A stretch of 64,000 nt of DNA, from positions 4,647 through 68,646 of the forward strand of contig DASSFZ010000212.1 in NCBI GenBank assembly GCA_035693785.1, given 5' to 3'. Positions 1 through 22,349 of this stretch are shown here, piece after piece. The notes below the pieces were generated by a model. It did no database searches. It was not told the DNA's origin and worked only from the letters and a program-made list of their open reading frames with translations. The DNA comes from Anaerolineae bacterium (lineage in GTDB: Bacteria > Chloroflexota > Anaerolineae > Fen-1058). Made by a program: the position numbers and the translations under genes. Position 1 is the stretch's first letter. Each line of letters begins with the position of its first letter.

Positions 1-191
1 AAGAATGTGAAGTAATCGATCTGGAACGTGGTTGAGCCCGCCGGATACGCAAAGCGCGGCAGCAGGCGCGTCATAGCCGGGCCGAAGGCCAGCAGCAGCA
101 GGACGATGTCGAGCAGGAGCACCGCGAAAAACACCCAGAACTTGCGTATCAACTTCAAGTCGCGCTGCCACACGTCGAATGCGCCGAGCAT
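1..191 (-). CDS. ABC-2 type transporter permease, N-terminal fragment (gene runs off left edge)
   Basis: Own minus-strand translation from ATG 191..189: MLGAFDVWQRDLKLIRKFWVFFAVLLLDIVLLLLAFGPAMTRLLPRFAYPAGSTTFQIDYFTF. It starts 1 nt after the TGA (195..193) of the upstream ATPase. A basic stretch is followed by a hydrophobic helix, as in ABC-2 permeases. Partial, so absent from the ORF track. Confidence 0.55.
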   Translation of the reverse strand, partial: MLGAFDVWQRDLKLIRKFWVFFAVLLLDIVLLLLAFGPAMTRLLPRFAYPAGSTTFQIDYFTF

Positions 192-192
192 A

Positions 193-1149
193 TCAGGCCT
201 CGATTCGCATACCCGTCAGGTTGATGAACGCATCTTCCAGCGTCGGCCCCTGCACCGTCACGGCGTTGGCCGTCACACCGTGGTCGTGCAGATAGTTCAA
301 CACATAGGGCATCTTGCCCACCGCATCGTCGAGATACAGCCGGGCGATACGCTGATGGTAATTGCCCACAATGACGTACTTCTCGATCTCGCCGGCGCGC
401 ACCAGGGGAATCAGCATGGCGTCGGTCAGGTTGGGCGCGTGAACTTCCAGACTGCTCTTGCCGCTCACCTGCGACCTGATCTCGTGTGGCGCACCTTCGG
501 CCACTTTGCGGCCGCGATGCAGAATCGCCAGCCGATCGCACAGGCGATCGGCCTCTTCCATATAGTGCGTGGTGAGGATCACCGTGCAGCCGCGCGCTTT
601 CATTTCGCCGACCATGTCCCACACACTACGCCGAGAGGCCGGGTCCAGGCCGGCGGTTGGCTCGTCCAGGAAGACGAACTGAGGCGAGAGCATCATCACG
701 CGAGCCAGATCGAGCTTGCGCTTCATGCCGCCGGAGAACGAATCAACCAGGTGCCGTTCCTTGCCGTCCAGGTTGGCCCAGCGGAACGCTTCTCGTAGGC
801 GCTGTGCGCGCTCGGCGCCGCGCAGGCCGTGGATCTTGGCGTAGAAATCGAGGTTGTCATACGCCGTCAACATGCAGTCCAGGCAGGCATTCTGCGCGAC
901 GACGCCGATGCGCTGGCGCACCTGGGCGGGCTGCTTGCGCACGTCGTAACCGCCCACACTGGCCGTGCCGGACGAAGGTCGCAAGATGGTTGTCAAGATG
1001 CGCACTGCCGTCGTCTTGCCCGCGCCGTTGGGACCCAGCAGTCCAAAAATCTCGCCGGCCGCCACGTCCAGATCGAGCTCGGCCAACGCCAGGACGTTGC
1101 CGGCGTAGCGCTTGGTCAACTTGTGCGTACGTATTCCGTCGCTCATCAT
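193..1149 (-). CDS. ABC transporter ATP-binding protein (ABC-2/DrrA type, no peptidase or TM domain)
   Basis: Walker A GPNGAGKTT, signature FSGGMKRKL, Walker B FVFLDEPTAGLD. ATGATGA start/stop overlap with the upstream ligase gene; the second ATG (1146) is an equally possible start. Confidence 0.93.
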   Translation of the reverse strand: MMSDGIRTHKLTKRYAGNVLALAELDLDVAAGEIFGLLGPNGAGKTTAVRILTTILRPSSGTASVGGYDVRKQPAQVRQRIGVVAQNACLDCMLTAYDNLDFYAKIHGLRGAERAQRLREAFRWANLDGKERHLVDSFSGGMKRKLDLARVMMLSPQFVFLDEPTAGLDPASRRSVWDMVGEMKARGCTVILTTHYMEEADRLCDRLAILHRGRKVAEGAPHEIRSQVSGKSSLEVHAPNLTDAMLIPLVRAGEIEKYVIVGNYHQRIARLYLDDAVGKMPYVLNYLHDHGVTANAVTVQGPTLEDAFINLTGMRIEA

Positions 1150-2648
1150 CCCTCCACCGGTTGCTCGACCGGCAAAAACCAGCTGCCCGCGCGAATGATC
1201 GGGGACGGGTCGATCAACCGCTCCACTAGGGCTAACAGCGGTTGGTACTCGTCCGGCGCGCGCCCCGACACGGTATCCAGGTACAGGCGCGACTTGAGGG
1301 ACGCGCCGTCCCGAATGGGGATGGCGCCGGGCGGCACGCGAATCGCGGGGAAGAAGAATCGCTGTTTAGCAAAAGCGTGTGTCTCGCGCACTTCCGCCTC
1401 GCTTTTGCCACAGCACGCAGCCAGGATATGTCCGGCCATGCCAGTGTCCACACGCGGCACGTCCGGCGTATCATCTTCCAGGAACGTCACGACGATGCGT
1501 GGAAAGCCGCCATTCAAAGCGTAGTAGACGGGAAAGACGCGCCTGAAACCTTTCAGTTCCTGGGCAATCCATTGCAGGTTGTAAGTGCTGCCATTGATCC
1601 CGATGTAGGGCACTTGGACTTCGTGATCGCGGTGGTGGAAGCGCATAGAGCGTCCAGAGAAGCCACAGGCGCACTCGGCGGCGGGCGAAATTTCGACCAT
1701 GTCGGCGTTCAAGTGCTTGACGATGGGGAACACCGAGTTGGCGCAGGTAATGGCCAGCTCGCCGAAGCCGGTTTTCTCCATGCGGCCATTCTCCGCCTGG
1801 ATGCGGATGTCGCGCCGGCCGATCATACGCTGAAGGTCAAGCCCCTGGTAACACTCGCACGGAAACAGCCTGGTCAGCATCTGCAGCTTGAGGCCGCCCA
1901 ACCGGCCGAGCTGGCTGCTGATGGCCAACTTGAGCATGGTCGCCGGGTCAGCATCCGACAGGTGATACACCTCGCCGATGCCGGCGTGCGAGTAGCCGAA
2001 CAGCCCGCCCTCGGTGCATCCGAACACGCTGCCGTATTGGATGCCCATAGCCTCGATCTTGTGCGCCAGTTCCTGGTTGGGCAGCATCAACACCATCTGG
2101 ATGCCTGCCGCGCGCGGCTCCAGGCCGTGTTCGATCAGGTAGTTGAACCAGATGCCCGGCGAGTTATCCACGATGACATTGGGGCGTTCGCGTTCGATCA
2201 GATCCAAAACGTACGGCGCGTCGGAGAGCCTGTCGCGCGACACACCGACCAGGACCGAGCCAAAAGCCTTGGCACGTTCTTCTTCGTCAGGATTTACACA
2301 AAAGAGAAATCGGGGGCTGCCTTTGATCTGGCTGATAAAATTGAGGAAGATGCTCTGACACAGGAAAAACCATTCGGCTCTGAGCCAGGGAAAAGTGATG
2401 GGGCGATTAGTTGTGCCAGAAGTGTGTCGATACTCGATCTGCGTGTCGGGATAGGCAACCGGCAAGTAGTAGGGTTGGCCGGTTTCTTCCTCGTAGCGGA
2501 TGATGTCGCTTTTGGTGAGAAACGGAATGTCTTGCACGCCGGCCCGCTCCACGTCCACAGCAGCATTGTCGTACAGCCAGCGGTAGAACGGTTTCTCTTG
2601 GTAAGCCTGGCGCGCCAGCGCCAGAATGAATTCGTCACCGTCGTTCAT
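1146..2648 (-). CDS. PaaK / coenzyme F390 synthetase / CapK-like adenylate-forming enzyme (copy 1)
   Basis: N-terminal KPFYRWLYDNAAVDVERAGVQDIPFLTKSDI resembles the PaaK-type motif. ANL nucleotide loop is HTSGTTNRPITFPW. Start moved from 2696 to ATG 2648 (GGAGAA 7 nt upstream). Paralog of 4481-6010. Confidence 0.8.
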   Translation of the reverse strand: MNDGDEFILALARQAYQEKPFYRWLYDNAAVDVERAGVQDIPFLTKSDIIRYEEETGQPYYLPVAYPDTQIEYRHTSGTTNRPITFPWLRAEWFFLCQSIFLNFISQIKGSPRFLFCVNPDEEERAKAFGSVLVGVSRDRLSDAPYVLDLIERERPNVIVDNSPGIWFNYLIEHGLEPRAAGIQMVLMLPNQELAHKIEAMGIQYGSVFGCTEGGLFGYSHAGIGEVYHLSDADPATMLKLAISSQLGRLGGLKLQMLTRLFPCECYQGLDLQRMIGRRDIRIQAENGRMEKTGFGELAITCANSVFPIVKHLNADMVEISPAAECACGFSGRSMRFHHRDHEVQVPYIGINGSTYNLQWIAQELKGFRRVFPVYYALNGGFPRIVVTFLEDDTPDVPRVDTGMAGHILAACCGKSEAEVRETHAFAKQRFFFPAIRVPPGAIPIRDGASLKSRLYLDTVSGRAPDEYQPLLALVERLIDPSPIIRAGSWFLPVEQPVEG

Positions 2649-2706
2649 CAGACTTTCTCCGATCGTCACACATCGCGGTGCTGCCTCTCGCGCCACTGTC
2701 CGTTGC

Positions 2707-4101
2707 TCACAGGCAGGCGGGCTGCGTCGGCGCGGACACTTCCGTCGTTTGCTGCAACTGCAGGTATACAGGCACCAGTTGGCAGTCGAACGACGAGGTC
2801 GCCCTGAGTTGTCCTTGTTCGTAGTACGCCTGCGCCGGGCAGCGGCTGCAATACTTCTGGTAAGCGGGGCACGTCCGGCATTGGTCGGGATCCGCGAACC
2901 AGCGTTCTTCGCGCATTTGGCATAGCGCGGGCGATTGTCGCCAGATGTCGGCGAAACTCTCCCGCTCCAAGTCGCCCACTTCGATCATCAGTCGTTGACA
3001 CGGCGTCACGCGCCCGTTGGGCGTGATGGCATACTTGGTCCGAGCCGCACCACAGTATAAGTTAGGGAAGGGCCGGTACCAACCTCGCGACATCAGGTTT
3101 CGAATCTGGTCGAGCGACAGTCGATCGTTCAGCGTGTCGGTCGCGCCATTGGTGCGGGCGTATACGGCAATCGACAGGATAGGCTGAGACAGTCCCCAGG
3201 TCGCCGATAATCGCGCGAAATTGTCCACATCGTCGAAATTACGGCGAGTGACCACCATCCCCGGAATGACCTTGACGCCATGCTCCCGAAGCAGTGCGAC
3301 GCCGTGGCAGCTGCGTTCAAATGCGCCGTTCCGCCCTGCCAGACGATCGTGAACGTCCGGGCTGCCGCCGTGAAAGGAGACGGCGACGCTTTCGAGAGCC
3401 AGCCGGCCAAGGCGCTCGGCCAGCTCCGGGGTGATCAGCGTGCCGTTCGTCACAACCGATGTGACAAACCCACGCTGCACGGCGTATTCGAGAATCAACA
3501 TGAAGTCGGGGTGCGCCGTCGGTTCGCCGCCGCTCAGGCGGATGCACAGCGTGCCCGCCTCGGCTATTTGATCCAGGATGTCTCGCCAGTGGCTGAAGTC
3601 CAGCGCGCGCCCGCGCTGTCCGGCGTCGTAGCAGTAATAGCACTTCAGATTGCAGGCATGGGTCAGCGTCAGAGTGGCCACCAGTGGGACGCACTTCTCA
3701 TCAGCAGCACCGTAAAAGCGGGCGACCTGCGCAGGTACGGGCAAATTGGAGCGTCGATTCTGACGTGAGAAAGCGGGCGTCGTGCAACCCTCCAGTGTCA
3801 CGAGTCCGCTCTGGTGGAGTGCATGCACAAACCGAGCCACACTGTCCGTGACGGCGGCCAAGTCGGCATCGTAGTGCCGCGCCACGGCGCGCGCCATCTC
3901 CTCGCCTGTTCGGGTGCCGTCAGCCAACTGCCAGATATATGTTCCGACTCGATCCATACGGTGTTGGATGGTCGCACCTTCACGCAGGCTGATGATGAAC
4001 GTGTCGTCGCCGACGGTTCGCGAGCGCGCGGCCTCGTGGCGACTGATCCGGCGTTTCAATTCGTTCGCTGTGGGCTGTTCTGCACGACCGTTGCTGCCCA
4101 T
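2707..4101 (-). CDS. Radical SAM/SPASM peptide maturase with N-terminal PqqD/RRE-like domain (rSAM-1)
   Basis: THACNLKCYYCY (CxxxCxxC). C-terminal SPASM cysteines are CGAARTKYAITPNGRVTPCQ ... CRTCPAYQKYCSRCP. N-terminal FIISLREGATIQHRMDRVGTYIWQLADGTRTGEEMARAVARHY is PqqD-like. Start moved to ATG 4101 (AAGGAG 7 nt upstream). Confidence 0.9.
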   Translation of the reverse strand: MGSNGRAEQPTANELKRRISRHEAARSRTVGDDTFIISLREGATIQHRMDRVGTYIWQLADGTRTGEEMARAVARHYDADLAAVTDSVARFVHALHQSGLVTLEGCTTPAFSRQNRRSNLPVPAQVARFYGAADEKCVPLVATLTLTHACNLKCYYCYDAGQRGRALDFSHWRDILDQIAEAGTLCIRLSGGEPTAHPDFMLILEYAVQRGFVTSVVTNGTLITPELAERLGRLALESVAVSFHGGSPDVHDRLAGRNGAFERSCHGVALLREHGVKVIPGMVVTRRNFDDVDNFARLSATWGLSQPILSIAVYARTNGATDTLNDRLSLDQIRNLMSRGWYRPFPNLYCGAARTKYAITPNGRVTPCQRLMIEVGDLERESFADIWRQSPALCQMREERWFADPDQCRTCPAYQKYCSRCPAQAYYEQGQLRATSSFDCQLVPVYLQLQQTTEVSAPTQPACL

Positions 4102-4307
4102 CCGTACACTCCTTCGTAATCCCGATGGAGAGTGTCGCACTGTCCGGCAGTCGCTAACGAGTGCCTGCCACTAACCGAGACCGCTCAGTCAATCGTGACG
4201 TCCGTGTTGGCCGCAAGGGCCGTGACGCATGCACAGGCAACACTCTCCTCGACAGTCAGGGGAGACAATCCAGCCCTGGCTATGCTCGCTGGCTCGTCAG
4301 TGACGGA

Positions 4308-4388
4308 CTAGCAAGCGGCGGCGCACTCCTTCAGAGCTTCCGCTTCCTCGCCAACATCGAGTGTGATCAGCTCAGGCTCGGCGTACAT
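4308..4388 (-). CDS. Putative RiPP precursor peptide A, 26 aa: MYAEPELITLDVGEEAEALKECAAAC
   Basis: Hand-translated; too short for the ORF track. ATG 4388..4386 is preceded by GGAGG (GGAGGTAAGCAC-ATG). An in-frame TAG six codons upstream fixes the start. Stop is TAG at 4310..4308. It lies upstream of rSAM-1 (about 200 nt before its start) on the same strand. Confidence 0.65.
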   Translation of the reverse strand: MYAEPELITLDVGEEAEALKECAAAC

Positions 4389-4480
4389 GTGCTTACCTCC
4401 TCTCTAGTAGGATGTGAGATCGACTCCCCGGCCGGAGGAATCGCGAAACCGCTCGATGCGTACACTCGCCGGCATTGCCG

Positions 4481-6010
4481 TCAGGCCGGCGTTGGCTGAG
4501 AAACCTCAACGGGCAAGAACCAGCTTCCCGACCGGATGATGGCGGCGCGGTCGACAAGCTGGTCGATCAACGCCAGCACAGGTCGATACTCGTCGGGCAC
4601 GTATCCGGACACCGCATCCAGGTACAGGCGAGATTTGAGCGAATGTTGGTCTCGCAGGGGTATCGTCCCGACCGGAATGCGAACGGCCGGGAAAAATGGC
4701 AAGAAGTTCCTTCTCGATGAGATGAGGCGCATCGTCTCTGAATTGATGCCGGTTGCCGCCGTCATAATGCGCTCAGCCAGGTCGAGATCCAGGCAGGCTG
4801 CCGTCGCGAGTTCGTCTTCAACGAGCGTGACGACTATCCGAACCGTCGGGTCCGGTGCGATATGAATCGGGAAGACGCGCCGAAAGCCCTTCAGCCCGAG
4901 CGCGATGCCTTCCAGGCTGACGTTCATGCCGCCGCCCAGATAAGGAATCTGGACATTATGGTCGCGGCACTCGAACCGCATCGACTGCCCCACGAAGCCG
5001 CAGTCACACTTAGCCTCAGGATGAATCTCGACCCGATCGCTGTTTAAGTACTTGATGAAGGGGAATGCCGAATTCGCGCAAGTGATGACCAACTCGCCTG
5101 CACCGGCAGTGCTCAGTTCCCCATCCACCCGGCGCACTCGAATATCGCGCCGGCCGAACATGGCCTGCAGATCCATACCCTGATAGCAGTCGCAAGGGAA
5201 CAGCCGGCTGAACACCTGTAGCCGGATACCGCCTAACAGCGTTGGAGAGTCGCTGGCGGAACGGATCGGCTCTGCATCGGACAGGTGGTACACATCGCCC
5301 AGGCCGGCGTGCGCATAGCCGAAGAACCCGGCTTCCATACAGCCAAACGCGCTGACGTACTTCAGGCCCAAGGACTCCACCTTCTGGGCCAGTTCGGCGC
5401 TGGGATATGCACAGACCATTTGGATGCCGGCCCGGCACGGATCTAGGCCGTGGTCGAGGAGATAGTTAAACCACAGGCCCGGCGAATTATCGAGAAAGAT
5501 ATTGGGCCGATGCCTGGCGATGAGGTCTAAGACGTAGGGCGCGTCGGCCATGCGATCGTGCGGCACATTCACCAGCACCGACTGGAAGGCTCGCATCTCT
5601 TCCAGTTGATTGGGATTGACGGCGTTGAGGAAACGCGGGCGACCTTTGATTTGCTCGATGAAGTTCAACAGCAAGCTGTTGTAGAGGAACGACCACTCGG
5701 ACTTCAGCCAGGGTATCACCAGAGGCTGGCAGGTTGTGCCGGAGGTACGCAGATATTCCAAGCTGGAATCTGGATAGCCCAGCGGCAGATAATAGGGCTG
5801 CCCCGTCTCTTCCTCGTAGTGGAAGAAGTCCTTCTTGGTGATGAAGGGCAATCGTCGCACGTCCGCGTGTTCTACGTCCACGCTTGCGTTATCATAAAAC
5901 CAGCGGTAAAAGGGCTTTTCCTGATAAGCCTCGCGAGCGAGTGAGAGGATAAACTCGTCTCGCTGCCTCAGCCGCCCAACCGCGTTTTTCTCCTCGTGTC
6001 GCTTATCCAT
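4481..6010 (-). CDS. PaaK / coenzyme F390 synthetase / CapK-like adenylate-forming enzyme (copy 2)
   Basis: KPFYRWFYDNASVDVEHADVRRLPFITKKDF and RTSGTTCQPLVIPW. Clearly paralogous to 1146-2648 along its whole length. Start moved to ATG 6010 (GGAAGG upstream). Confidence 0.8.
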   Translation of the reverse strand: MDKRHEEKNAVGRLRQRDEFILSLAREAYQEKPFYRWFYDNASVDVEHADVRRLPFITKKDFFHYEEETGQPYYLPLGYPDSSLEYLRTSGTTCQPLVIPWLKSEWSFLYNSLLLNFIEQIKGRPRFLNAVNPNQLEEMRAFQSVLVNVPHDRMADAPYVLDLIARHRPNIFLDNSPGLWFNYLLDHGLDPCRAGIQMVCAYPSAELAQKVESLGLKYVSAFGCMEAGFFGYAHAGLGDVYHLSDAEPIRSASDSPTLLGGIRLQVFSRLFPCDCYQGMDLQAMFGRRDIRVRRVDGELSTAGAGELVITCANSAFPFIKYLNSDRVEIHPEAKCDCGFVGQSMRFECRDHNVQIPYLGGGMNVSLEGIALGLKGFRRVFPIHIAPDPTVRIVVTLVEDELATAACLDLDLAERIMTAATGINSETMRLISSRRNFLPFFPAVRIPVGTIPLRDQHSLKSRLYLDAVSGYVPDEYRPVLALIDQLVDRAAIIRSGSWFLPVEVSQPTPA

Positions 6011-6072
6011 TCCGAACCTTCCATCCCCGCCACGGCCAACCGATAGTCGCACGCGCGAATGTCGCCGGGCCG

Positions 6073-6630
6073 TCACGCCAAGGCGGTGTCAGCCATGACG
6101 AGCAGGTCTTCTCCGACGTCGATAGCGTCGTGTCGCTGGTCGGCGAACTGCGCCAATCGCCCCGTTAGGAGCGCCAGGCCGGACACGATCGATTCGCGTT
6201 CGAGGGCTGATAAGCCTGACAGCAGCCCCTGGAAAAACACGTTTTGCAACGTCCGAATTTGCGTGCTGCGCGCTTCGCCGCTCTCTGACAGCTTCAGACA
6301 AACGACACGCCGATCCCGTTCGTCGCACATCCGCTCTGTCAGGTTGGCTTTGACAAGCTTATCCGCGACCCGCGTCACCGTGCTGGCCGCCAACTTGGTA
6401 TAGTCGCTGATTTCGGTCATCGTCATCGGGCCGTTGACTTGCAGACCCATTAAGATGTAGCTTTGCAAAATGGTGATGTCCAGGGCGCCTAGCATCTCGC
6501 GGCTTAATACATAAAACAGGCGTATCAACTGCGGCAGATCGCGTTGCAGCCTGTTTGCCTCCGATAGATTCACGCTGGCTGGGTCGCAACACAACCGCTC
6601 GACGTACTCTTCCATCTGACGCCTCTTCAC
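6073..6630 (-). CDS. MarR family transcriptional regulator
   Basis: Winged-helix core LQSYILMGLQVNGPMTMTEISDYTKLAASTVTRVADKLVKANLTERMCDERDRRVVCLKLSESG is typical of MarR. An alternative start exists at MEEYV (6615). Confidence 0.85.
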   Translation of the reverse strand: MKRRQMEEYVERLCCDPASVNLSEANRLQRDLPQLIRLFYVLSREMLGALDITILQSYILMGLQVNGPMTMTEISDYTKLAASTVTRVADKLVKANLTERMCDERDRRVVCLKLSESGEARSTQIRTLQNVFFQGLLSGLSALERESIVSGLALLTGRLAQFADQRHDAIDVGEDLLVMADTALA

Positions 6631-6661
6631 ACAGTTCGCGCGGCTCCGTGTCGCAGCGCAA

Positions 6662-8077
6662 TTAGGCCAGAGCGGCTACCATCTGATCACGCTGATCGAT
6701 GTAGGCAATCGCATGCGCCAATTGGCAGGCTTCTTGACAACGGCCGTCAAACGTCGTGCTCTCCAGATACGACAGGCCCACGCAATCGACGCAGTAAGAT
6801 CGCACACGGCATTCGCGACAGCCCGCCCGGTCTTTCGTCTCCAAATAAGAGCGGAAGCGAGCGATCCACTCCTGGCGCTCGGGGGAACGCAAAACCGTCT
6901 CGAAAGAATGGTGAGCCAGGTTGCCCAATTCGATCGTCGATAACATCTCGCATGGGTGCAACGAGCCATCCGGCCCTATGCGAAATCGGCTGACCCCCGC
7001 CGTGCATCGGCTGCGCCGCAGCGTGATGCCCAGTTGTGGCGTCATCGCCCTGAATTGTTCGCGAGTCGCCCGGTATTGCGTTGGAGCGGCGTTGCGCTGA
7101 ATCGTGGGATATACGAGCGGGCTGACCTGAAACCGAATGCCCAGTGAGTCCAGCCGGCGCTTGATCTCCAACAACTGATCGGCATTGTCGCTCATCAGTG
7201 TGCTGGTGACCGTGACCGGAACGCCGTGGGTATGGAGCGCCACAATCCCCTTCCACGTCCTCTTGAAGGAACGTGCGTTCCGCACAAAACGGTTGTGGTA
7301 GGCTTCTAAGCCGTATATGGGCACCCGCACCTCGACCAGCGAAACAGAGGCGAGCAATTCGACTAGTTCTTCGTCAAGCCGCGTACCGTTAGTCAGCAGT
7401 TCCACGGCGAAGTGCAGTTCATGAGCACGCTGCAGTATCTTGGTGAAGGCACGGTGCAGCGTCGGCTCGCCGCCAGTCAGAATCAACTCCAACACGCCGG
7501 CTTGCGCCATCTCGTCCAGGAGTTCTAGCTGGCGCGAAGTGGAGAGCGCCGACGTGCCCGGCACGCCTACGCCGAACCCCAAGTAACAATGCTGGCAGTG
7601 ATGATTGCAGTGATGCGTCAACTCAAAGAAGACCTTGAGCGGCAGCACCTGGGCGCTGGCCTTTTCAAACATAGTATCCAACACATCGGCTTCGGACACT
7701 TCCGGCTCGCCTCCGTTCGACACGGGTGATCTGAGCGAGAGGCTCGTCGCGCCATTCGGGGATTCTTCGGTGAACAAGCCCGCCGCCACAGCCGACACCA
7801 GAAACTCCTCCAGACCGGAGTCGAATTCATCGGGCGATACATCGAAGCGGGCGAGTATCTCGTCTCTGAATGCGTCGAAGGCCGCGCGCCGTTCGACGGA
7901 CGAGAACACTTCGACGCCAAGCCCGCCGACAATGGCGAATCGGTTCTCAACCTTTGCGCCTGTTCGCCAGCAGAACACTTCATCACCGACGAAGCGATAG
8001 GCCAGGTTGTCCGCGATCTTCAGGTGAGACCATGCCTGCCCGACTTTCCCGTCAGCACCAGAATCGTGATCGTTCAC
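6662..8077 (-). CDS. Radical SAM/SPASM peptide maturase with N-terminal PqqD/RRE-like domain (rSAM-2)
   Basis: THHCNHHCQHCY (CxxxCxxC). SPASM cysteines are CTAGVSRFRIGPDGSLHPCE ... CRECRVRSYCVDC. GTG start at 8077 with AGGAGA upstream. Confidence 0.9.
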   Translation of the reverse strand: MNDHDSGADGKVGQAWSHLKIADNLAYRFVGDEVFCWRTGAKVENRFAIVGGLGVEVFSSVERRAAFDAFRDEILARFDVSPDEFDSGLEEFLVSAVAAGLFTEESPNGATSLSLRSPVSNGGEPEVSEADVLDTMFEKASAQVLPLKVFFELTHHCNHHCQHCYLGFGVGVPGTSALSTSRQLELLDEMAQAGVLELILTGGEPTLHRAFTKILQRAHELHFAVELLTNGTRLDEELVELLASVSLVEVRVPIYGLEAYHNRFVRNARSFKRTWKGIVALHTHGVPVTVTSTLMSDNADQLLEIKRRLDSLGIRFQVSPLVYPTIQRNAAPTQYRATREQFRAMTPQLGITLRRSRCTAGVSRFRIGPDGSLHPCEMLSTIELGNLAHHSFETVLRSPERQEWIARFRSYLETKDRAGCRECRVRSYCVDCVGLSYLESTTFDGRCQEACQLAHAIAYIDQRDQMVAALA

Positions 8078-8195
8078 ACCATATTCTCCTGATCGAGTAT
8101 CAACACGTCCGGCTCATAGCCCCTGAAACCGTGGCGGGGCGCCTCTGGGCACGCTGCGCCAAATCCGTCCTTTATGGTCTCACCGTTGAGAACCA

Positions 8196-8225
8196 CGAGC
8201 GCCCGGTTTCGGCGCTCGGTTTTTG
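8196..8225. terminator. GC-rich hairpin with flanking A5/T5 tracts between precursor B and rSAM-2
   Basis: CGAGCGCC-cggtttc-GGCGCTCG (8 bp stem) is followed by gTTTTTg on the plus strand. On the coding (minus) strand the stem is preceded by AAAAA and followed only by a weak U-containing tail (GUGGUUCUC). Confidence 0.35.
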
Positions 8226-8261
8226 CCCCCCCGCCTTACGGTGTATCGAAGAGCGACTCGA

Positions 8262-8330
8262 TTAGCAGCCTGAGCCGCACGCAACGGCGCCACTGGTGCG
8301 GCGCGTCTTTCCAACGACGAGCTTGAACAT
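8262..8330 (-). CDS. Putative RiPP precursor peptide B, 22 aa: MFKLVVGKTRRTSGAVACGSGC (34 aa if started at ATG 8366)
   Basis: Hand-translated. ATG 8330..8328 is preceded by AAGGAGG (AAGGAGGTATAAGC-ATG). Stop is TAA at 8264..8262. An in-frame upstream ATG at 8366 would give MFRILNFQGGISMFKLVV... but has no SD. The ORF lies between rSAM-3 and rSAM-2 on the same strand. Confidence 0.6.
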   Translation of the reverse strand: MFKLVVGKTRRTSGAVACGSGC

Positions 8331-8555
8331 GCTTATACCTCCTTGGAAGTTCAGAATTCGGAACATGGTGCCATCCACATCTCGGCAGATACTCACGACC
8401 GATTCGCGAGATGCCAATCAGCACACAAGCTGACTGTACACGAGACCGTCAAGGGCGTGGTACACCAACGGGCCCAGAGGCAACAAGTTGATACCAACTC
8501 TGTTTTAACCAATGTCAGTTGATGCCCTCATGAGTGCGCGCCACAGGCAGTGGCC

Positions 8556-9884
8556 TCACGCTGGCTGTCGTTCAAGCGCGTACGTTTCCTGCTTCGCCTC
8601 GGCGCACAAGCGCGCGACGCGGCAGGCCTCGCTCGAAGGGCTATTCGGATTGCCGTCTTCCATCTCGGCCAACGCCGGGCAGCGACGGCAGTAATCCGAC
8701 CATGCGCAAGCGTGGCAGGCTTCGGGCGTGCAGAAAAACTCGGACGCCCGGAATGCTTCCAACTCGGCCCCGCGCCAGATATCTTCAAACGCCTGCTCAC
8801 GCAGGTTCCCAAAGGAACGCCGCACCAGCTCGCAGGGATAAACATCACCGAATGGTGAGATGCGCGCTTTAGTGGTGGCGGCTGTGCATACGCTTCGCCG
8901 GCGCACCAGCTTGCCCTGCCGCGCCAGATCCAGCACCCAGTCATCCGAAATACGATAATCCAGTGGCGCGAGTGAGCCGTTGACGTTTGGCAGCAGGTGA
9001 ACATTCAGAGCAAAGCCCACCTGCCATTGCTCGCACAGCCGGCGCAGGGCATCTTCCTCACGGACGTTGTGATACGTGGCATTGAAGATCACGTAAACGT
9101 TTGCGCCGGCTTGAGCCAGATACTCGATACCCCGGCAGGCCCGGCGAAACGATCCATTCACAGCGGTGAATGCATCGTGCGTGGACGGGCGCGCGCCGTG
9201 CAGGCTGACCTGCACCGTACACCAGCGCGCCAGCAGGTCTGCGTACGCCGGTGTGATCAACGTGGCATTCGTCAAAACCAGAATGGCAAACCGGCGCTCG
9301 TGGGCGAGCCGGATGAGCTGCTCCAGGTCGCGACGCGCGAAGGGTTCGCCGCCCGTGAAGCACAAGAACAGCGTCCCCGCTTCAGCCAGTTGATCAAGAA
9401 TCGATTGAACTTCTGATGTATTCAAAACCCGGTGGTTGTCTTTGGCCGTGTAGCAATACACGCAATCCAGATTACAGGCGTAGGTCGTCTCAAAATCAAC
9501 ACGAAATGGAACCCGCTGTCGCTTAACCTCGGTGATGACGAGCTCCGGCTGCCAACGCGTCGCTTCGCGGAATGACCGGCGCACGCCGCCAGTTTCGCCA
9601 TCGGCCGTGACAATCGAGCGGTCGTATAGCGAACGGACGAACTTGCACACATCCTGCGCGACCTGCGCGAGAGGCACGGCAAACTGGTCGCTGAGTGAAG
9701 CGGCGATTTCGCGCAACGGTGTCTGGCGCGTCAAATGCCCCCAAATCAACTCGCCGACGCCGGTCAGTTTGCTCGTTTCGCCAGTGCGCAGCGCGTAGAC
9801 ATAGACGCTGTCCCCCACTTTGCGGTAAGCGACATCATCCCTGAGCGCGATTTGTCTATCCAGCCAATTCAGATCGGCTTCCAT
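8556..9884 (-). CDS. Radical SAM/SPASM peptide maturase with N-terminal PqqD/RRE-like domain (rSAM-3)
   Basis: TYACNLDCVYCY (CxxxCxxC). SPASM cysteines are CTAATTKARISPFGDVYPCE ... CHACAWSDYCRRCP. PqqD-like segment is VYVYALRTGETSKLTGVGELIWGHLTRQTPLREIAASL. Start moved from 10139 to ATG 9884 (MEADLNWL); the exact start is uncertain. Confidence 0.88.
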   Translation of the reverse strand: MEADLNWLDRQIALRDDVAYRKVGDSVYVYALRTGETSKLTGVGELIWGHLTRQTPLREIAASLSDQFAVPLAQVAQDVCKFVRSLYDRSIVTADGETGGVRRSFREATRWQPELVITEVKRQRVPFRVDFETTYACNLDCVYCYTAKDNHRVLNTSEVQSILDQLAEAGTLFLCFTGGEPFARRDLEQLIRLAHERRFAILVLTNATLITPAYADLLARWCTVQVSLHGARPSTHDAFTAVNGSFRRACRGIEYLAQAGANVYVIFNATYHNVREEDALRRLCEQWQVGFALNVHLLPNVNGSLAPLDYRISDDWVLDLARQGKLVRRRSVCTAATTKARISPFGDVYPCELVRRSFGNLREQAFEDIWRGAELEAFRASEFFCTPEACHACAWSDYCRRCPALAEMEDGNPNSPSSEACRVARLCAEAKQETYALERQPA

Positions 9885-10125: not shown

Positions 10126-10917
10126 TCAGATGCGCTCACGCATGCGGACGTAGTAGCGGCTCAGCACCACATCGGCCAGCCCTGGAAATGCTCGGAGGAA
10201 TGCAATCAGGGGGCGCCAGCTCGTCGGCAGGATGTCATGGCGACGCGGATGCCGGAGCAGTCTGGCAACGCGTTCGGCGACGACGTCGGAACACATCACG
10301 CCGCGCACGCGCTGGCCGTTGGCCAGCTTCTCGGCCGCGCGCCGCAGGCGTGGGCTGAAGTTGGTGGCGACAAAGCCTGGGCTTAGCACCGTCACGCGAA
10401 TGCCGCTGTCCTGCACTTCGCGCCGCAGCGCGTCGGAGAAACCGACGATCGCGGATTTGGTCGCGCAATAGATGCTGGCGCCCGGTATCCCGATCAGACC
10501 GGCGAGGGAAGCGACGTTGATGATGTGCCCCGACGACTGGCGCAGCATGGCCGGCAGCACCGCCTGCACGCAATCGATCACCGCGATCAGATTCACGTCG
10601 ATCTGTTCGCACACCTGGTCGGGATCCAGATCGATCACGCGCCGCGGGTAACTCAACCCGGCATTATTGACGAGCACATCCACGCGCCTCCACCGGTCGA
10701 GGGTGGCCTGGACCATGTGCTGGATGGCCGCGCGATCGCGCACGTCGGTCGGGACGACGAGGGCGCGCGTCTCGTCGCCGATTGCAGCGGCCACCCGTTC
10801 GAGTTCTTCTCGTCGCCGCGCGGCCAGCGTCACACACATTCCGTCACGCGCCAGGCGACGCGCCGTTGCCTCGCCAATTCCACTCGATGCGCCTGTCACG
10901 ATAGCCACTTTGTCCAC
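10126..10917 (-). CDS. Short-chain dehydrogenase/reductase (SDR)
   Basis: VTGASSGIGEATARRLA Rossmann motif and YCATKSAIVGFSDAL (YxxxK). GTG start with AGGAG 6 nt upstream. Confidence 0.88.
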   Translation of the reverse strand: MDKVAIVTGASSGIGEATARRLARDGMCVTLAARRREELERVAAAIGDETRALVVPTDVRDRAAIQHMVQATLDRWRRVDVLVNNAGLSYPRRVIDLDPDQVCEQIDVNLIAVIDCVQAVLPAMLRQSSGHIINVASLAGLIGIPGASIYCATKSAIVGFSDALRREVQDSGIRVTVLSPGFVATNFSPRLRRAAEKLANGQRVRGVMCSDVVAERVARLLRHPRRHDILPTSWRPLIAFLRAFPGLADVVLSRYYVRMRERI

Positions 10918-10975
10918 GATCGACTCCTACGTTGGCCGCTTGCGCGTCGATCCGACGCCTGGGCGGCGCGGCACC

Positions 10976-12406
10976 TCAAGCGCGAGCGACCGACCTTTTA
11001 GTCCGCGCCGCTTTGACGACGGCCACTGCTCGCTTGATCGGCGCGCCGACGGCTGCGTGTCGCCAGGCAGGCCCTGTCGTCCCCAGGCGTGTGCCCAGGC
11101 GCATGATAGCCTTGGCGATGGCCGAATCGCGTTGACGCGGGGCGAGCCAGGTCGGTTCCCGCCGCGCGTGATTCAAGACTCGCTCCATCATCTTCGGCGC
11201 AAGCTCTGGTGACAAATAGAAACGCGGTTCCAGCAGATCGTCGTCCGAGAACGCCCCCCCTTCCTGTTGGAGCACCTCGGCCAGGCCGGTGGCCGGAAAG
11301 ATGCGCAGTCCGAATGAATACGTCACGGCCGTGGCGCGCATCTTGCCAATGGCTGTCAACGTCTCCTCGATCGTTGTCGCCGTCTCGCCTAGCCCGCCGA
11401 AGATCAGATGGAAGAGGAACGGCAACCTGGCCTGGCAGCAGCCCTCACTGCAGGCGGCTACGTCGTCCAGCGTGAACCCCTTGCGCAACCGATGCAGCAT
11501 CCCATCGTTTGCCGCGTCGATGCCCAGCTCGACGCCGCTGCAGCCGGCGCGCCTCATCAGGCAGGCCAGCTCGGGCGACAGCGAGGACGGGTTGGCTCCG
11601 CACACCCAGTGCAGGTCGAGCCTGCGCCGCAGTATCTCCTCGCAGATCGCCGCAGCGTGATCCGGCGGATACGTGAACACCGCATCCACGAAATGGATCT
11701 TCTTCACGCCGGCGCGCGCCAATCGCTCCAACTCTTCGCCTACGTTCTGCGGAGAGCGCAGCCGCACGTCTCGCCCCTCGATCACGGGGTAGTTGCAGTA
11801 CAGGCACCGAAACGGGCAACCCCGCTTGGTCTGGACGTTAACCGCGCTGCCTGCCAGCTCGTACGTCCGGGAGACTGCCCGATCGCGCGTGGGAATGGGC
11901 AAAGCATCGAGATCGCGCACACGAGCCGGTGGCTGCCTGTCGCCTGGCGAGTCGCGGTTCGTCACAACGCCTGGGACACGATGCGGGTCACCGCACGCCA
12001 GCCACAACGGGAACGCCTCTTCGCCTTCGCCGACAATCCCGATTTGCAGGTCCAAGAAGCGCAGTATGGCCTGAGGAAAGATGGAGAAGCCCGACCCGCC
12101 GGCCACGATGGGCGCATGGAACGCCTGACGGCAGGCATCGACGATAGGGCGTATCGCAGGCAGGTAACGCACGGGCGCATCGTAAGTCAGGTTGTCGATG
12201 TTTCGGATGGACAGGCCGATGCAATCCGGCTTGAACGTCTGCACGGCATCGCGCGCGACCTGCGCCGCATCCTTTGCAAAGCACAGGTCCAGCAGGCGCG
12301 TCTCGATGCCCCGCTGTCGCAGGCTGGCATCCACATAGGCGAGTCCCAGCGGCAGGACCGGATAGGGCGACTGCTCCCGATTGGTGTAGATGAGCAAGAC
12401 TCTCAT
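10976..12406 (-). CDS. B12-binding domain radical SAM enzyme (class B type)
   Basis: N-terminal MRVLLIYTNREQSPYPVLPLGLAYVDASLRQRGIETRLLDL is B12-binding-domain-like. It is followed by TKRGCPFRCLYCNYP (CxxxCxxC). The ATG at 12406 overlaps the upstream KS stop (ATGA). Confidence 0.85.
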   Translation of the reverse strand: MRVLLIYTNREQSPYPVLPLGLAYVDASLRQRGIETRLLDLCFAKDAAQVARDAVQTFKPDCIGLSIRNIDNLTYDAPVRYLPAIRPIVDACRQAFHAPIVAGGSGFSIFPQAILRFLDLQIGIVGEGEEAFPLWLACGDPHRVPGVVTNRDSPGDRQPPARVRDLDALPIPTRDRAVSRTYELAGSAVNVQTKRGCPFRCLYCNYPVIEGRDVRLRSPQNVGEELERLARAGVKKIHFVDAVFTYPPDHAAAICEEILRRRLDLHWVCGANPSSLSPELACLMRRAGCSGVELGIDAANDGMLHRLRKGFTLDDVAACSEGCCQARLPFLFHLIFGGLGETATTIEETLTAIGKMRATAVTYSFGLRIFPATGLAEVLQQEGGAFSDDDLLEPRFYLSPELAPKMMERVLNHARREPTWLAPRQRDSAIAKAIMRLGTRLGTTGPAWRHAAVGAPIKRAVAVVKAARTKRSVARA

Positions 12407-13674
12407 GCCACTGGCTTCCTGTACACGACGGCATTGTTGCGCCCGAAAAACGAGATCGTGTTTTGCAGGATCGTCCGAATGGGAATTGCCCGGCCCACGT
12501 TCGGCACGTAATCCAGATCGCATTCGGGATCAGGCTCGCGATAGTTGATCGTCGGGGGCACGAAACCGTGCTCCATCACTAACGCGCACGTCACCGCCTG
12601 CATGATCCCGGCCGCGCCCTGCGTATGCCCGAGCATCGACTTGATCGCGCTGACCGGCACGCGACACGCCGCTTCACCAAACACGTTCTTGATCGTCTTG
12701 GTCTCGTTGACGTCGTTCAACTGTGTACTGGTACCGTGCGCGCATACGTAATCCACCTCGTCAGGCTGTACGCCCGCCTCGTGCAACGCCAGGCGCATGG
12801 CCCGCGCCGACTGTTCGCTCGTCGGGCTGGGAGCCGTCATGTGATAAGCATCCGCCGACGCGCCGTAGCCGGCCACCTCCGCGTAGATATGCGCGCCGCG
12901 CCGCCGGGCATGCTCCCACTCTTCCAGCAGGATCACGCCTGCGCCCTCGCCCATCACGAATCCGTTGCGCGTACGGTCGAAGGGACGCGACGCGCGTTCC
13001 GGCTCATCGTTGTGCTGCGACAGCACGTTGAGCATCGCGTAACTGTAGAAGATGTAGGGCTGGATCGGCGCCTCTGCGCCGCCTGCGATCATCAAGTCGG
13101 CCTCGCCATACTGGATCTGGCGAAAAGCGTAGCCCACTGCATCGGTGGACGACGCGCACGCTGCGGCGGTGACCGTGCTATCACCCTGCAGGCCGAACAT
13201 CCCGTTCACGCTCAGCGCCACCTGTCCCAAGAAAGTGGTCAAGACGTGACGCGCGCAGCGCTGCGCCTCCGCTTCGTCGCCACGGGCGGCTGCGGCGAAC
13301 AAGTCGTCCAAAAGAGGCAGACGCGCTTCCAAATCCCCCGCCGCCGAACCGATGCTCACCCCAGCACGCGTCCGATCTTCGGCGTCGAGCTGCACATCGG
13401 CATCGGCCAGCGCCTGCTGGGTCGCAACCAGCATGAATTGATTCGCGCGATCGGCTTGATCGGTCCAACGCGCAACGGCGGCGGCATCCAGATAGCGGCG
13501 CACATCGAAGACCTTCACTTCGGCAGCCATCGTGGAGCGGTAGCCGCTGGCATCGAACGCCTGGATCGGCCCTGCACCGGAGCGACCCGCCTTGAGGTTC
13601 TCCCAGAAGTCGCGTTTGCCGATCCCAATCGGCGACACGATCCCCACGCCGGTCAGCGCCACACGTCTAGCCAT
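12403..13674 (-). CDS. Beta-ketoacyl-ACP synthase (KS, FabF-like, full Cys-His-His triad)
   Basis: Active-site AAACASSTDAVGY, CAHGTSTQLND and LGHTQGAAG. The start overlaps the upstream CLF-like gene by 8 nt. Confidence 0.92.
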   Translation of the reverse strand: MARRVALTGVGIVSPIGIGKRDFWENLKAGRSGAGPIQAFDASGYRSTMAAEVKVFDVRRYLDAAAVARWTDQADRANQFMLVATQQALADADVQLDAEDRTRAGVSIGSAAGDLEARLPLLDDLFAAAARGDEAEAQRCARHVLTTFLGQVALSVNGMFGLQGDSTVTAAACASSTDAVGYAFRQIQYGEADLMIAGGAEAPIQPYIFYSYAMLNVLSQHNDEPERASRPFDRTRNGFVMGEGAGVILLEEWEHARRRGAHIYAEVAGYGASADAYHMTAPSPTSEQSARAMRLALHEAGVQPDEVDYVCAHGTSTQLNDVNETKTIKNVFGEAACRVPVSAIKSMLGHTQGAAGIMQAVTCALVMEHGFVPPTINYREPDPECDLDYVPNVGRAIPIRTILQNTISFFGRNNAVVYRKPVA

Positions 13675-14968
13675 CGGCAGGATCTCCTTCGCGCCAGCGC
13701 TTGTAGACGAGCGCGCCGCACTTGCCCAGGACAGATAGGCTGTTGTGTAGGATCACGGCGGGCGAGGCTGCCCGCGCCTGGTTGGGCACGTAATCCAGGT
13801 CGCACATCGGATCCGGCTGGCTGTAATTGATTGTCGGCGGCAGCAAGCCGCGCCCCAGCGCCAGACAGCAGCTCGCCGCTTGCAGCGCGCCGTCGGCGCC
13901 CAACGTATACCCGAATATGGGCTTGATGGAACTGACCGGCACGTCGTACGCGTGTTCGCCCAGAGCCTGCTTGATGGCCAGCGTCTCCCGGATGTCGCCC
14001 GCTTGAGTGCCGATGCCGTGCGCGGCGATGAACTCGACGCAGTCAGGAGCCAGGGCCGCATCCGCCAGCGCCATGCGCATGGCGAGGCTGGTATCGCCTG
14101 GCGCGTCGTGCGCCGGCAGGTCGTTGGCGGGCAGGCACGTCGCGGCATAGCCGGCCAGTTCGGCGTAGACGTGCGCGCCGCGCCGCAGCGCATGCTGCAT
14201 CTCTTCCAAGACGAGAATGGCCGCACCCTCGCCGAGCACAAACCCGTCCCGCCCGGCATCGAACGGCCGGCAGGCGCGCTCTGGCTGATCGTTGCGGCGC
14301 GACAGCAAGCCGAGGCCGTCGAACAGGATTAGCGACGAATGCAGGATCGGCGCTTCGCTGCCGCCAGCGATCATGACATCGGCCTCGTCGTACTTGATCT
14401 GCCGATACGCATAGCCCAGCGCATCCATGCCGGCGGTCTCGGCGGCGTAGACCGTCACGCCCGGCCCGCGCAACTGAAAATTGACCGTGATGTTGCCGAA
14501 CGACGCGCCGCTGCTGCCGATGATGCACGACAGGGCGTTCATCTTGTGAATGCCGCCTGTCTGGATGCGCTCTATCTCGCCGCGCGCCATACGGATCGGG
14601 CCGGCAAACGTGCCGATGCTCGTGCCTGCGCGTTCGGAGTCGCTCGGGGTGAGGGTGAGATCGGCATCCTCCATCGCCATCTGGGCGGCCGCATACGCAA
14701 AGCCCGACACGCGCTCCATGAAGCGCGCCTGCTTGCGGTCGGTGTAATCGTTGATGGAGAAGCCATCCACGCTGGCTGCGATGTGCACGCGCTGGCCCGG
14801 CCGAGGCTCAAGCGTGCGGATCGGCCCGGCGCACGAGCGGCCTTGACGGATGGCCTGCCAGAAGGCTTCTTTCCCGATGCCGGCCGGCGACACGACGCCA
14901 ATGCCGGTCACCACCACGCGGCGGCGCGCGTTTTGTCGTGTCGAGGCGTCATGTGTCAGCATAACCAT
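13667..14968 (-). CDS. Ketosynthase-like protein lacking the active-site Cys (chain-length-factor-like)
   Basis: KS fold throughout. The Cys position reads YAAETAGMDALGY and the second His motif reads FGYTLGADG. Start moved to ATG 14968 (MVMLTHDA...). Confidence 0.82.
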   Translation of the reverse strand: MVMLTHDASTRQNARRRVVVTGIGVVSPAGIGKEAFWQAIRQGRSCAGPIRTLEPRPGQRVHIAASVDGFSINDYTDRKQARFMERVSGFAYAAAQMAMEDADLTLTPSDSERAGTSIGTFAGPIRMARGEIERIQTGGIHKMNALSCIIGSSGASFGNITVNFQLRGPGVTVYAAETAGMDALGYAYRQIKYDEADVMIAGGSEAPILHSSLILFDGLGLLSRRNDQPERACRPFDAGRDGFVLGEGAAILVLEEMQHALRRGAHVYAELAGYAATCLPANDLPAHDAPGDTSLAMRMALADAALAPDCVEFIAAHGIGTQAGDIRETLAIKQALGEHAYDVPVSSIKPIFGYTLGADGALQAASCCLALGRGLLPPTINYSQPDPMCDLDYVPNQARAASPAVILHNSLSVLGKCGALVYKRWREGDPADG

Positions 14969-17417: not shown

Positions 17418-17563
17418 AGCGCCTCCTCGCTCTCACAGTGCATCCGACATGTCATTCTGAGGCACGAAGCGCCGAAGAATCTCTGTTTTCGCGGCCCGAC
17501 ATGAGACACTTCGCTCGCTGCGCCCGCCCAGAGTGACGGCTGCACGGAGTCTTAAGACACACT

Positions 17564-18805: not shown

Positions 18806-18834
18806 GTCATCTCACCTTCTTTCTCAAACGCAAC

Positions 18835-20097: not shown

Positions 20098-20126
20098 ACG
20101 CCCGATCTCCAATCAGGTCGGCCAGG

Positions 20127-22302: not shown

Positions 22303-22349
22303 CGCTGGGCCTACCCGTCCGAAGTATCAGGGCGTCGCACGGCGAGTCA

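Follow-up and report, generated by a model that had tools for sequence, protein, structure and literature searches.

Positions 1 to 9884 of the 64,000-nucleotide Anaerolineae stretch analyzed here (hereafter the window; Chloroflexota, assembly GCA_035693785.1, contig DASSFZ010000212.1) are best read as a new pathway for a peptide that is made ribosomally and then modified post-translationally (RiPP), in which radical S-adenosylmethionine (rSAM) maturases would be joined by a PaaK-type ligase as an integral tailoring enzyme. We place the probability of this reading at roughly 85%, judging from gene content and its conservation in related loci. The chemistry of the product is probably new, and the complete explanation developed below, a new RiPP class together with each of its proposed steps, has a little under an even chance of holding in full. 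RiPPs matured by rSAM enzymes that depend on a RiPP recognition element (RRE) are a known kind of system. New by the standard of curated models and the searchable literature are the precursor family, the unclassified maturases and, above all, the conserved PaaK-family ligase partner. RiPP discovery hinges on spotting novel enzyme combinations, and a conserved, translationally coupled PaaK-family ligase in rSAM peptide clusters appears to be such a combination.

Organization of the gene cluster

Translation of the open reading frames (ORFs) of the window showed that the minus strand of 1-9884 carries one co-directional gene string, transcribed in the order rSAM-3, peptide B, rSAM-2, MarR, ligase-2, peptide A, rSAM-1, ligase-1, ABC ATPase and membrane-protein fragment. 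An earlier interpretation of the same DNA from its letters alone (the sequence-only reading) had listed these ORFs, and all were recovered on the minus strand at the same positions. Gene starts agree with the public gene calls (P0001, 500 aa; P0002, 509 aa; P0004, 464 aa). The features are as follows:

1-191, minus strand: presumed ABC-2 permease; a membrane protein (MLGAFDVWQRDLKLIRKFWVFFAVLLLDIVLLLLAFGP...) of which the initial 63 codons are present, starting 2 nt past the ATPase stop and leaving the window
193-1149, minus strand: DrrA-type ABC transporter ATPase, 318 aa (ABC_tran, 1.3e-30); its first 4 nt overlap the end of ligase-1
1146-2648, minus strand: ligase-1, 500 aa, assigned to the PaaK family (ANL superfamily) as a divergent adenylate-forming enzyme (profile, AlphaFold2 model, motifs)
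2707-4101, minus strand: rSAM-1, putative maturase with PqqD (RRE), radical SAM and SPASM domains, 464 aa (Pfam, cysteine motifs)
4308-4388, minus strand: predicted precursor peptide A, 26 aa, MYAEPELITLDVGEEAEALKECAAAC (ORF, Shine-Dalgarno site, orthologue in the related locus L003)
4481-6010, minus strand: ligase-2, paralogue of ligase-1, 509 aa (58% identity, same motifs)
6073-6630, minus strand: MarR-family transcriptional regulator, 185 aa (Pfam MarR, 8.6e-12)
6662-8077, minus strand: rSAM-2, putative maturase with radical SAM and SPASM domains and an N-terminal extension of ~140 aa, 471 aa (Pfam, cysteine motifs)
8196-8218, no strand assigned: 8-bp hairpin, GC-rich, situated 44 nt downstream of the stop codon of peptide B
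8262-8330, minus strand: predicted precursor peptide B, 22 aa, MFKLVVGKTRRTSGAVACGSGC (ORF, Shine-Dalgarno site, likeness to the C-terminus of the L003 peptide)
8556-9884, minus strand: rSAM-3, putative maturase with PqqD (RRE), radical SAM and SPASM domains, 442 aa (Pfam, cysteine motifs, L003 orthologue)

In the public record, rSAM-1 and rSAM-3 are each named "PqqD family peptide modification chaperone", rSAM-2 is a "radical SAM protein", and both ligases are entered as "hypothetical protein". Because the flanking genes have consecutive protein accessions (HET7088743-HET7088748), with no gap left for the two peptides, annotation of the precursor genes is apparently lacking in the deposited metagenome-assembled genome.

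Predicted precursor peptides and conserved gene order

Peptides A and B end in CAAAC and CGSGC, respectively, and in both the C-x3-C pair at the extreme C-terminus contributes the sole cysteines. GGAGG Shine-Dalgarno motifs are positioned 7-9 nt upstream of the ATG of both short ORFs (GAGGAGG at 8 nt for peptide A, AAGGAGG at 7 nt for peptide B). Across all six frames of the whole window, C-x3-4-C directly precedes 8 of 2823 stop codons, and two of these eight belong to peptides A and B, both located in intergenic gaps immediately upstream of rSAM genes; the likelihood that chance would put two CxxxC-stop ORFs in exactly those gaps is judged to be low. Peptide B contains neither Asp nor Glu, and its C-terminus is therefore its only carboxylate. 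Among the candidate peptides, 6 of 10 are Cys-terminated.

A counterpart of peptide A is present in a close relative of the cluster. In locus L003, a metagenome contig from another organism, the C-terminus of an rSAM-3 orthologue (64% identity) is followed by the peptide (MN)MYTKPEVITVEFAAAEDSPKATGCGSSGC, an rSAM-1 orthologue (50%, P0006) and the start of a ligase gene, the last base of the rSAM gene being the first base of the ligase gene. This peptide, which runs MYTKPEVITVEF...GCGSSGC, has in common with peptide A a C-terminal Cys pair and the stretch MYxxPE[LV]IT[LV][DE], a plausible leader, and the spacer between its cysteines (GSSG) resembles that of peptide B (GSG). Two further metagenome contigs preserve the adjacent enzymes: in L002, 158 ligase residues (56%) come after an rSAM-1 orthologue (55%, P0005), and in L006 a ligase (59%) comes after the C-terminal end of an rSAM-1-like gene. 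The sequence-only reading had made its peptide assignment depend on conservation of a short ORF beside homologous rSAM/ligase pairs, and the peptide in L003, together with the pairs also found in L002 and L006, upholds it.

The L003 gene order points to an ancestral unit composed of rSAM-3, peptide, rSAM-1 and ligase. Between rSAM-3 and peptide A lie peptide B, rSAM-2, MarR and ligase-2, which seem to form a second unit, more divergent than the first. The duplicated module proposed in the sequence-only reading thus stands as regards the second unit, whereas the first is refined to rSAM-3, peptide, rSAM-1 and ligase. Similarly, the third maturase of that reading is indeed encoded (rSAM-3) but is not a spare enzyme, since it is part of the conserved unit. 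The same reading had also posited a five-residue core. The C-x3-C motif does lie at the C-terminus, but the length of the core is a matter of interpretation, and the L003 orthologue has C-x4-C.

These features bear on whether the locus encodes a RiPP at all. If the short ORFs were fortuitous, the rSAM enzymes and ligases would act on a non-peptide substrate, such as one from the adjacent lipid pathway, and both the co-directional lipid cluster, separated by a 241-nt gap without a predicted terminator, and the lack of a clear RRE in rSAM-2 would fit such a role. However, the strong Shine-Dalgarno sites on both short ORFs, the retention of leader and Cys pair in the peptide orthologue, the PqqD domains of rSAM-1 and rSAM-3, the recurrence of Cys-rich short ORFs beside rSAM genes in sister loci and the improbability of a chance CxxxC-stop ORF in both of these gaps make a non-peptide pathway very improbable.

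The GC-rich hairpin at 8196-8218 sits between the peptide B stop and rSAM-2 and may be an attenuator or an RNA-stabilizing element, which could set the ratio of precursor to enzyme expression. Promoter and terminator scans overall did not rise above shuffled background, so the hairpin call is weak, and Rfam matched nothing in 1-11 kb. An inverted repeat comparable to this hairpin precedes the rSAM-1 orthologue in L002 (about 5-70).

Putative radical SAM maturases

Pfam identified Radical_SAM (1e-21 to 8e-28) and SPASM domains above cut-off in rSAM-1, rSAM-2 and rSAM-3. As the sequence-only reading had claimed, all three have the CX3CX2C motif (CNLKCYYC, CNHHCQHC and CNLDCVYC, respectively) and the full set of SPASM cysteines (C-x12-G-x4-C and C-x2-C-x5/6-C-x2-C). 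Its further claim of a PqqD/RRE segment in all three held for rSAM-1 (42 bits) and rSAM-3 (37 bits; Pfam cut-off 23.4 bits), but not for rSAM-2, where the match is sub-threshold. The three proteins are 26-34% identical to one another.

None of the named rSAM equivalogs (PqqE, MftC, ScmE, NirJ/AhbD, AlbA, SkfB, PapB, anSME) was reached at its NCBIfam cut-off. The top scores were for ScmE (143 against a cut-off of 400), PqqE (132 against 381) and MftC (123 against 265), with further matches to AhbD (123 against 500), NirJ (109 against 515), SkfB (85 against 300) and AlbA (87 against 850), and anSME was absent among the best 25 NCBIfam matches per protein. The closest solved structures are PqqE (6c8v, E 1.4e-25 for rSAM-1) and SkfB. 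With scores far under every curated cut-off, the rSAMs are taken to be unclassified RRE-dependent SPASM maturases outside any named family. The sequence-only reading had conceded that they might fall into a family with a known non-peptide substrate, and no such curated family fits. Heme- or sulfatase-type enzymes (NirJ, AhbD, anSME) were rejected on account of these scores and the presence of an RRE. An ACGX-repeat system, considered in view of the ACGSGC ending of peptide B, was also rejected (rSAM_ACGX, 62-71 bits against a cut-off of 400).

As PqqE and MftC are the closest characterized rSAM relatives, the peptides could conceivably be consumed as scaffolds in the making of a small redox cofactor or metabolite, in the manner of PqqA or MftA, their C-terminal residues being cross-linked by the rSAMs and cut out, with the ligase acting on the excised fragment. 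A modified site at the extreme C-terminus, as in MftA, and the absence of a dedicated leader peptidase would both suit such a role. We nonetheless consider a cofactor improbable: the ABC-2 exporter and MarR regulator fit a secreted product, no partner dehydrogenase or oxidoreductase family is adjacent, the PqqE and MftC models score far under their cut-offs, and the peptide cores differ greatly from one sister family to another, a pattern not usual among cofactors.

PaaK-family ligases

Ligase-1 and ligase-2 are paralogues (58% identity) that carry the same motifs, and profile and structure-model evidence assigns them firmly to the PaaK family, whose members are adenylate-forming enzymes. Neither matched any Pfam model, even at E ≤10 (including AMP-binding, PF00501), and their NCBIfam scores were far from the cut-offs (22 bits against 700 for PaaK, NF041878; 24 against 520 for FlxY). 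Single ligase sequences produced only marginal matches to the PDB. A 26-sequence ligase profile matched 4r1l (E 4.6e-21, positions 8-411 of 443), ClxA (9s3l, 2.9e-20), and NatL2 and AjiA1 (1e-15). The AlphaFold2 model of ligase-1 computed from the 26-sequence alignment had a predicted local distance difference test score (pLDDT) of 81 and a predicted template modeling score of 0.75 (an earlier model from a 3-sequence alignment, with a pLDDT of 39.8, was discarded). In a Foldseek comparison with the PDB, the top 33 matches all belonged to the PaaK family, with E-values from 7e-17 (2y27) to 2e-12 and a probability of 1.00, and included NatL2, AjiA1, ClxA and HCL. Domain models, which the sequence-only reading had suggested as a check on the enzymes, accordingly recognized the rSAM, SPASM, MarR and ABC_tran domains but not the ligases, for which profile and model were needed. 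Its label for the ligases, PaaK/F390-synthetase-like, is borne out by the 26-sequence profile and the fold.

Ligase-1 contains TSGTT (76), FGCTE (210), NADMVE (314), CACGF (326), R340 and SLK452. By inspection, and aligned to the PaaK motifs, the adenylation motifs are intact in both paralogues (TSGTT, FGCTE/FGCME, N-x-D316, R340 and K452), and the C-x-C-G-F element typical of the ligase family is also kept. Relative to shorter relatives, the ligases have an insert of ~55 residues (about 232-285, where model confidence is low) and a C-terminal extension. By sequence, the ligases form a divergent, unnamed PaaK subfamily and are not orthologues of phenylacetate-coenzyme A ligase.

F390 synthetase, a PaaK relative, nucleotidylates a hydroxyl of F420, and the membership of this enzyme in the same family could suggest that the ligases here similarly AMPylate a peptide hydroxyl or thiol. 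The peptides contain Tyr, Ser and Thr, and the CC motif of a sister peptide family (YCCxCH, described below) is preceded by a conserved Tyr. Nevertheless, nothing in the sequences distinguishes AMPylation from other outcomes, the chemistry is rare in the family, and we regard it as a highly unlikely function.

The ligase family is very rare. A word-indexed search of a 5.8-billion-protein collection returned only the two ligases and one 23%-identical protein, and the same kind of search with the 26-sequence alignment returned 10 proteins only. An exhaustive HMMER search against 1.84 billion representatives yielded 430 proteins at E ≤1e-3; tightening the threshold to 1e-10 and 1e-30 left 35 and 18, respectively. 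Among 185,579 GTDB species genomes, pattern scans with close- and wider-family profiles found no ligase relative, a result limited by the patterns used. In JGI metagenomes, the close-family pattern scan was empty, and the wider-family scan gave four loci.

Genomic neighborhoods of distant ligase relatives

Neighborhoods were also compared at 10 further distinct loci around ligase relatives at roughly 20-25% identity, which come from bacteria and Asgard archaea. A radical SAM gene lies within 6.5 kb of the ligase relative in eight or, by a second count, nine of these loci (L004/L005, L007, L008, L009, L012, L013, L014, L015 and L016); of the eight, five have a Cys-rich short ORF near the rSAM gene and four have ABC-2 exporter genes. 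L009 and L013 each carry a divergent ABC-2 exporter, a short ORF (MEEWLATGVAENKVEEYVETYCCACHNVKAASIEC or a close variant), a CefB/PapB-like rSAM, a PqqE/MftC-like rSAM/SPASM enzyme and the ligase, and the same parts recur in L004/L005 with a peptide ending ...EAYCCLCHAEE. E-x-YCCxCH is common to the short ORFs of these loci (L009, 3955-4062 and 1328-1435; L013, 4934-5053; L004, 11211-11312), and no curated family matches this sister RiPP-like family. L015 combines an rSAM, a peptide ending ...SNCGTFCSPVWGGGGGC (1531-1764), ABC and ABC-2 genes and the ligase, and the archaeal L016 combines the ligase, a B12-rSAM, a peptide ending ...NCSTLCGPVGAVPTACPLPCT (7897-8142) and an rSAM/SPASM gene. The short ORFs of L015 and L016 share NC[GS]T[FL]C[SG]PV, and that of L015 ends ...GGGGGC.

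In L007 (Thorarchaeota), the end of the rSAM gene overlaps the start of the ligase gene, and in L012 the rSAM gene is followed by the ligase. The distances are larger in L014 (a B12-rSAM about 2 kb from the ligase) and L008 (about 6.5 kb). A precursor of the Frankia_peptide family and an rSAM gene lie near the L008 ligase relative. No rSAM gene was found within the short contigs L001 (2.6 kb) and L017 (7.4 kb), and the case of L017 indicates that the rSAM association is not universal. There, the ligase relative (P0042) adjoins a BtrH_N/YobF_C protein (12-2472). L001 has a short ORF ending ...NFCGFACCLNGAFS (2367-2468) after an amidohydrolase gene, and C-x3-C spacing recurs among the short ORFs of L015, L016 and L001. 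As a whole, the neighborhood pattern suggests that the ligase subfamily is tied to rSAM peptide clusters with Cys-rich, often Cys-terminated short ORFs.

Exporter genes recur in these surroundings, with pairs of ABC_tran and ABC2_membrane in L004, L009 and L015. In the window, the ABC ATPase scores 299 bits against TIGR01188 (drrA; cut-off 312). The ABC-2 ATPase and permease of the sequence-only reading are therefore secured in part, the ATPase by Pfam ABC_tran, while the permease, of which only the first 63 codons fall within the window, is too short for Pfam. Pfam also confirmed the MarR call, and the reported lack of a leader peptidase, YcaO or LanB/C agrees with our finding of none among the large window ORFs scanned.

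Proposed pathway

In the pathway that we propose, the N-terminus of the peptide (MYxxPE[LV]IT[LV][DE] in type A) would be the leader that docks on the RRE, and the SPASM enzymes would subject the C-terminal Cys motif to radical chemistry, in all likelihood forming sulfur-to-carbon (thioether) cross-links. Thioether formation is the commonest outcome of SPASM-type enzymes on Cys-rich cores, as in sacti- and ranthipeptides. Peptide A would be acted on by rSAM-3 and rSAM-1 in turn, and peptide B by rSAM-2, perhaps together with rSAM-3. The ligase would then spend ATP to adenylate a carboxylate, for which the peptide's own C-terminal alpha-carboxylate inside the modified motif is favored, and the acyl-adenylate would be captured by a nucleophile, either the Cys thiol five residues upstream (yielding a five-residue thiolactone) or an amine. 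Finally, the putative DrrAB-type ABC-2 pump would export the product.

Activation of the C-terminal carboxylate of the peptide, with capture by a nucleophile, is a tentative assignment to which we give somewhat worse than even odds. It is favored because the gene set common to three divergent peptide families (those of the window, the YCCxCH loci and the L015 type) consists of peptide, rSAM(s), ligase and ABC-2 genes, because the modified motif is at a free C-terminus in most peptides, and because the only carboxylate of peptide B is its C-terminus. Across these three families, there is no shared gene able to make or carry an acyl donor. By analogy with staphylococcal autoinducing peptides, a five-residue thiolactone would be compatible with the C-x3-C-COOH spacing. 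The most specific form of the proposal, in which the ligase adenylates the alpha-carboxylate of an rSAM-cross-linked peptide and thereby closes a small thiolactone or lactam, or conjugates the C-terminus, to give a new RiPP class, is possible and on the doubtful side.

Several observations weigh against the pathway or parts of it. The close family comprises four lineages only, three of them represented by contigs of ~2 kb, and the N-terminal 140 residues of rSAM-2 match PqqD at just 13.4 bits (E 0.1). No leader peptidase is evident among the large window ORFs scanned. The C-terminal residue varies across sister families (Cys, Ala, Glu, Thr). To our knowledge, the characterized PaaK-family enzymes all activate small free acids, and a peptide C-terminus is not a known substrate of any of them. 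In L008, moreover, an AurF-like di-iron oxygenase immediately precedes the ligase relative (5950-8353), a hint that a free aryl acid is activated by some members of the family.

The last two points lead to an alternative within the same RiPP pathway, namely that the ligase adenylates a free small or fatty acid and then acylates a Cys thiol, or the N-terminus after leader removal, either directly or via coenzyme A. This would be similar to the role of NosI in nosiheptide or to ester and amide formation by NatL2, AjiA1 and ClxA. Each solved relative activates a small free acid, and besides the oxygenase of L008, a PP-binding protein and a canonical AMP-binding enzyme are encoded near the ligase in L015. 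A fatty-acid-type cluster also lies directly upstream of the RiPP module on the same strand. However, no acyl-donor gene or carrier protein is common to the window family, the YCCxCH family and the L015 type, and the upstream cluster looks like one for membrane lipids, differs in GC content and is absent from the sister loci. In addition, few nucleophiles would be left if the Cys thiols were consumed in thioethers. We hold acylation with a free acid to be possible, though on the doubtful side, and the strongest of the alternatives.

If the ligase does act on the peptide, it would represent a new ATP-driven reaction type for RiPP chemistry and peptide engineering, and the ligase profile would provide a handle for finding related clusters in uncultured bacteria and archaea. 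Adenylation of the alpha-carboxylate, if true, would make it the first ANL-superfamily enzyme known to act on a RiPP backbone, with a core gene set that spans Chloroflexota, other uncultured bacteria and Asgard archaea. Even if the ligase merely attaches a free acid, the system would still be a new acylated rSAM-RiPP family.

Comparison with known systems

Pyrroloquinoline quinone (PQQ) and mycofactocin biosynthesis (PqqA/PqqD/PqqE and MftA/MftB/MftC) resemble the system described here in that a short precursor is altered near or at its C-terminus by a SPASM rSAM enzyme via a PqqD-type RRE. They differ in several respects. The RRE is fused to rSAM-1 and rSAM-3 in the window, the scores are far under the cut-offs (132 against 381 and 123 against 265), and the motif targeted is Cys-x3-Cys, not Glu/Tyr or Val-Tyr. 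The window also adds an ABC exporter, a MarR regulator and a PaaK-type ligase, and has no other pqq or mft genes. The maturases of sacti- and ranthipeptides (AlbA, SkfB, StsB, PapB, CteB, CefB) likewise combine RRE, rSAM and SPASM domains, act on Cys cores and are often accompanied by ABC exporters. SkfB, StsB and AlbA are among the rSAM matches, and CefB/PapB-like enzymes accompany the ligase in sister loci. Here, by contrast, no model reaches its cut-off, and the core is presumed to be very short and strictly C-terminal. We know of no sacti- or ranthipeptide cluster that includes an adenylate-forming ligase.

NatL2, AjiA1 and ClxA, PaaK-family ligases that form no coenzyme A thioesters, have the same fold and the same adenylation motifs as the window ligases, and they show that the PaaK family can hand an acyl-adenylate straight to a hydroxyl or amine. 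The similarity amounts to ~13-16% identity, however. Those enzymes take free aminohydroxybenzoates in benzoxazole pathways, outside RiPP clusters, and lack the extra ~55-aa insert and C-terminal extension. ATP-dependent activation of a peptide carboxylate followed by capture, as in the mechanism favored here, has analogies in the lasso-peptide cyclase, MccB and ATP-grasp ligases. The thiolactone of the AgrB/AgrD autoinducing peptide is a five-residue ring that joins a Cys thiol to the C-terminal carboxylate, a spacing equal to C-x3-C-COOH. These carboxylate activators belong to other superfamilies (Asn-synthetase-like, E1-like, ATP-grasp and membrane protease) and have no sequence relationship to the window ligases.

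In nosiheptide biosynthesis, the activated acid ends as a thioester on a Cys of the core peptide; NosI depends on both a carrier protein and a transferase, and the rSAM enzyme NosL produces the acid from tryptophan. NosI/NosJ/NosK provide an example of an adenylating enzyme within a RiPP pathway that also uses radical SAM chemistry (PMC5585349). The window, by contrast, has no carrier protein, transferase or NosL, and the thiopeptide class is unrelated.

No NCBIfam model describes the gene set, and the searchable literature (with subscription-only papers outside it) shows no rSAM/SPASM RiPP with a PaaK, F390-synthetase, AMP-ligase or ANL enzyme. The sequence-only reading had allowed that an already named RiPP family might have exactly these genes, and none was found in either source. 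Since the ligases are invisible to Pfam and NCBIfam and the precursors are apparently unannotated, standard genome mining is likely to under-call or miss the class.

Surrounding genes

A fatty-acid-synthase-like cluster (10126-23951, minus strand) lies directly upstream of the RiPP module and is co-directional with it. It encodes four FabF-like ketosynthases, an acyl-carrier-protein-like ORF, two FabZ-like proteins, FabG, a FabI-like protein and a short-chain dehydrogenase/reductase, as well as a B12-rSAM that scores 345 bits against the ladderane-type lipid family TIGR04072 (cut-off 360) and a second B12-binding protein. An rSAM of this cluster is also related to the tetraether lipid synthase Tes (260 against 450) and to TrsS (293 against 490). 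GC content is 0.59-0.62 in 1-10 kb (RiPP module) and 0.64-0.66 in 10-22 kb (lipid cluster), and the step at about 10000 suggests two blocks with different histories. By its gene content, 10126-23951 would be a separate membrane-lipid cluster, which may produce membrane-spanning or otherwise modified lipids. A lipopeptide made jointly with the upstream cluster was considered and judged to be unlikely in light of the ladderane- and Tes-like lipid enzymes, the different GC content and the absence of the cluster from every sister locus.

The remainder of the window (24-64 kb) holds transporters and genes for fatty-acid and organic-acid degradation. Within 36226-63466, there are four canonical AMP-binding acyl-coenzyme A ligases, three acyl-coenzyme A dehydrogenases, a thiolase, two luciferase-like monooxygenases, components of a LIV-type ABC importer and a MEDS-BTAD regulator (40430-41974). 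Judging by these genes, this part of the window appears to be a catabolic region unrelated to the RiPP module.

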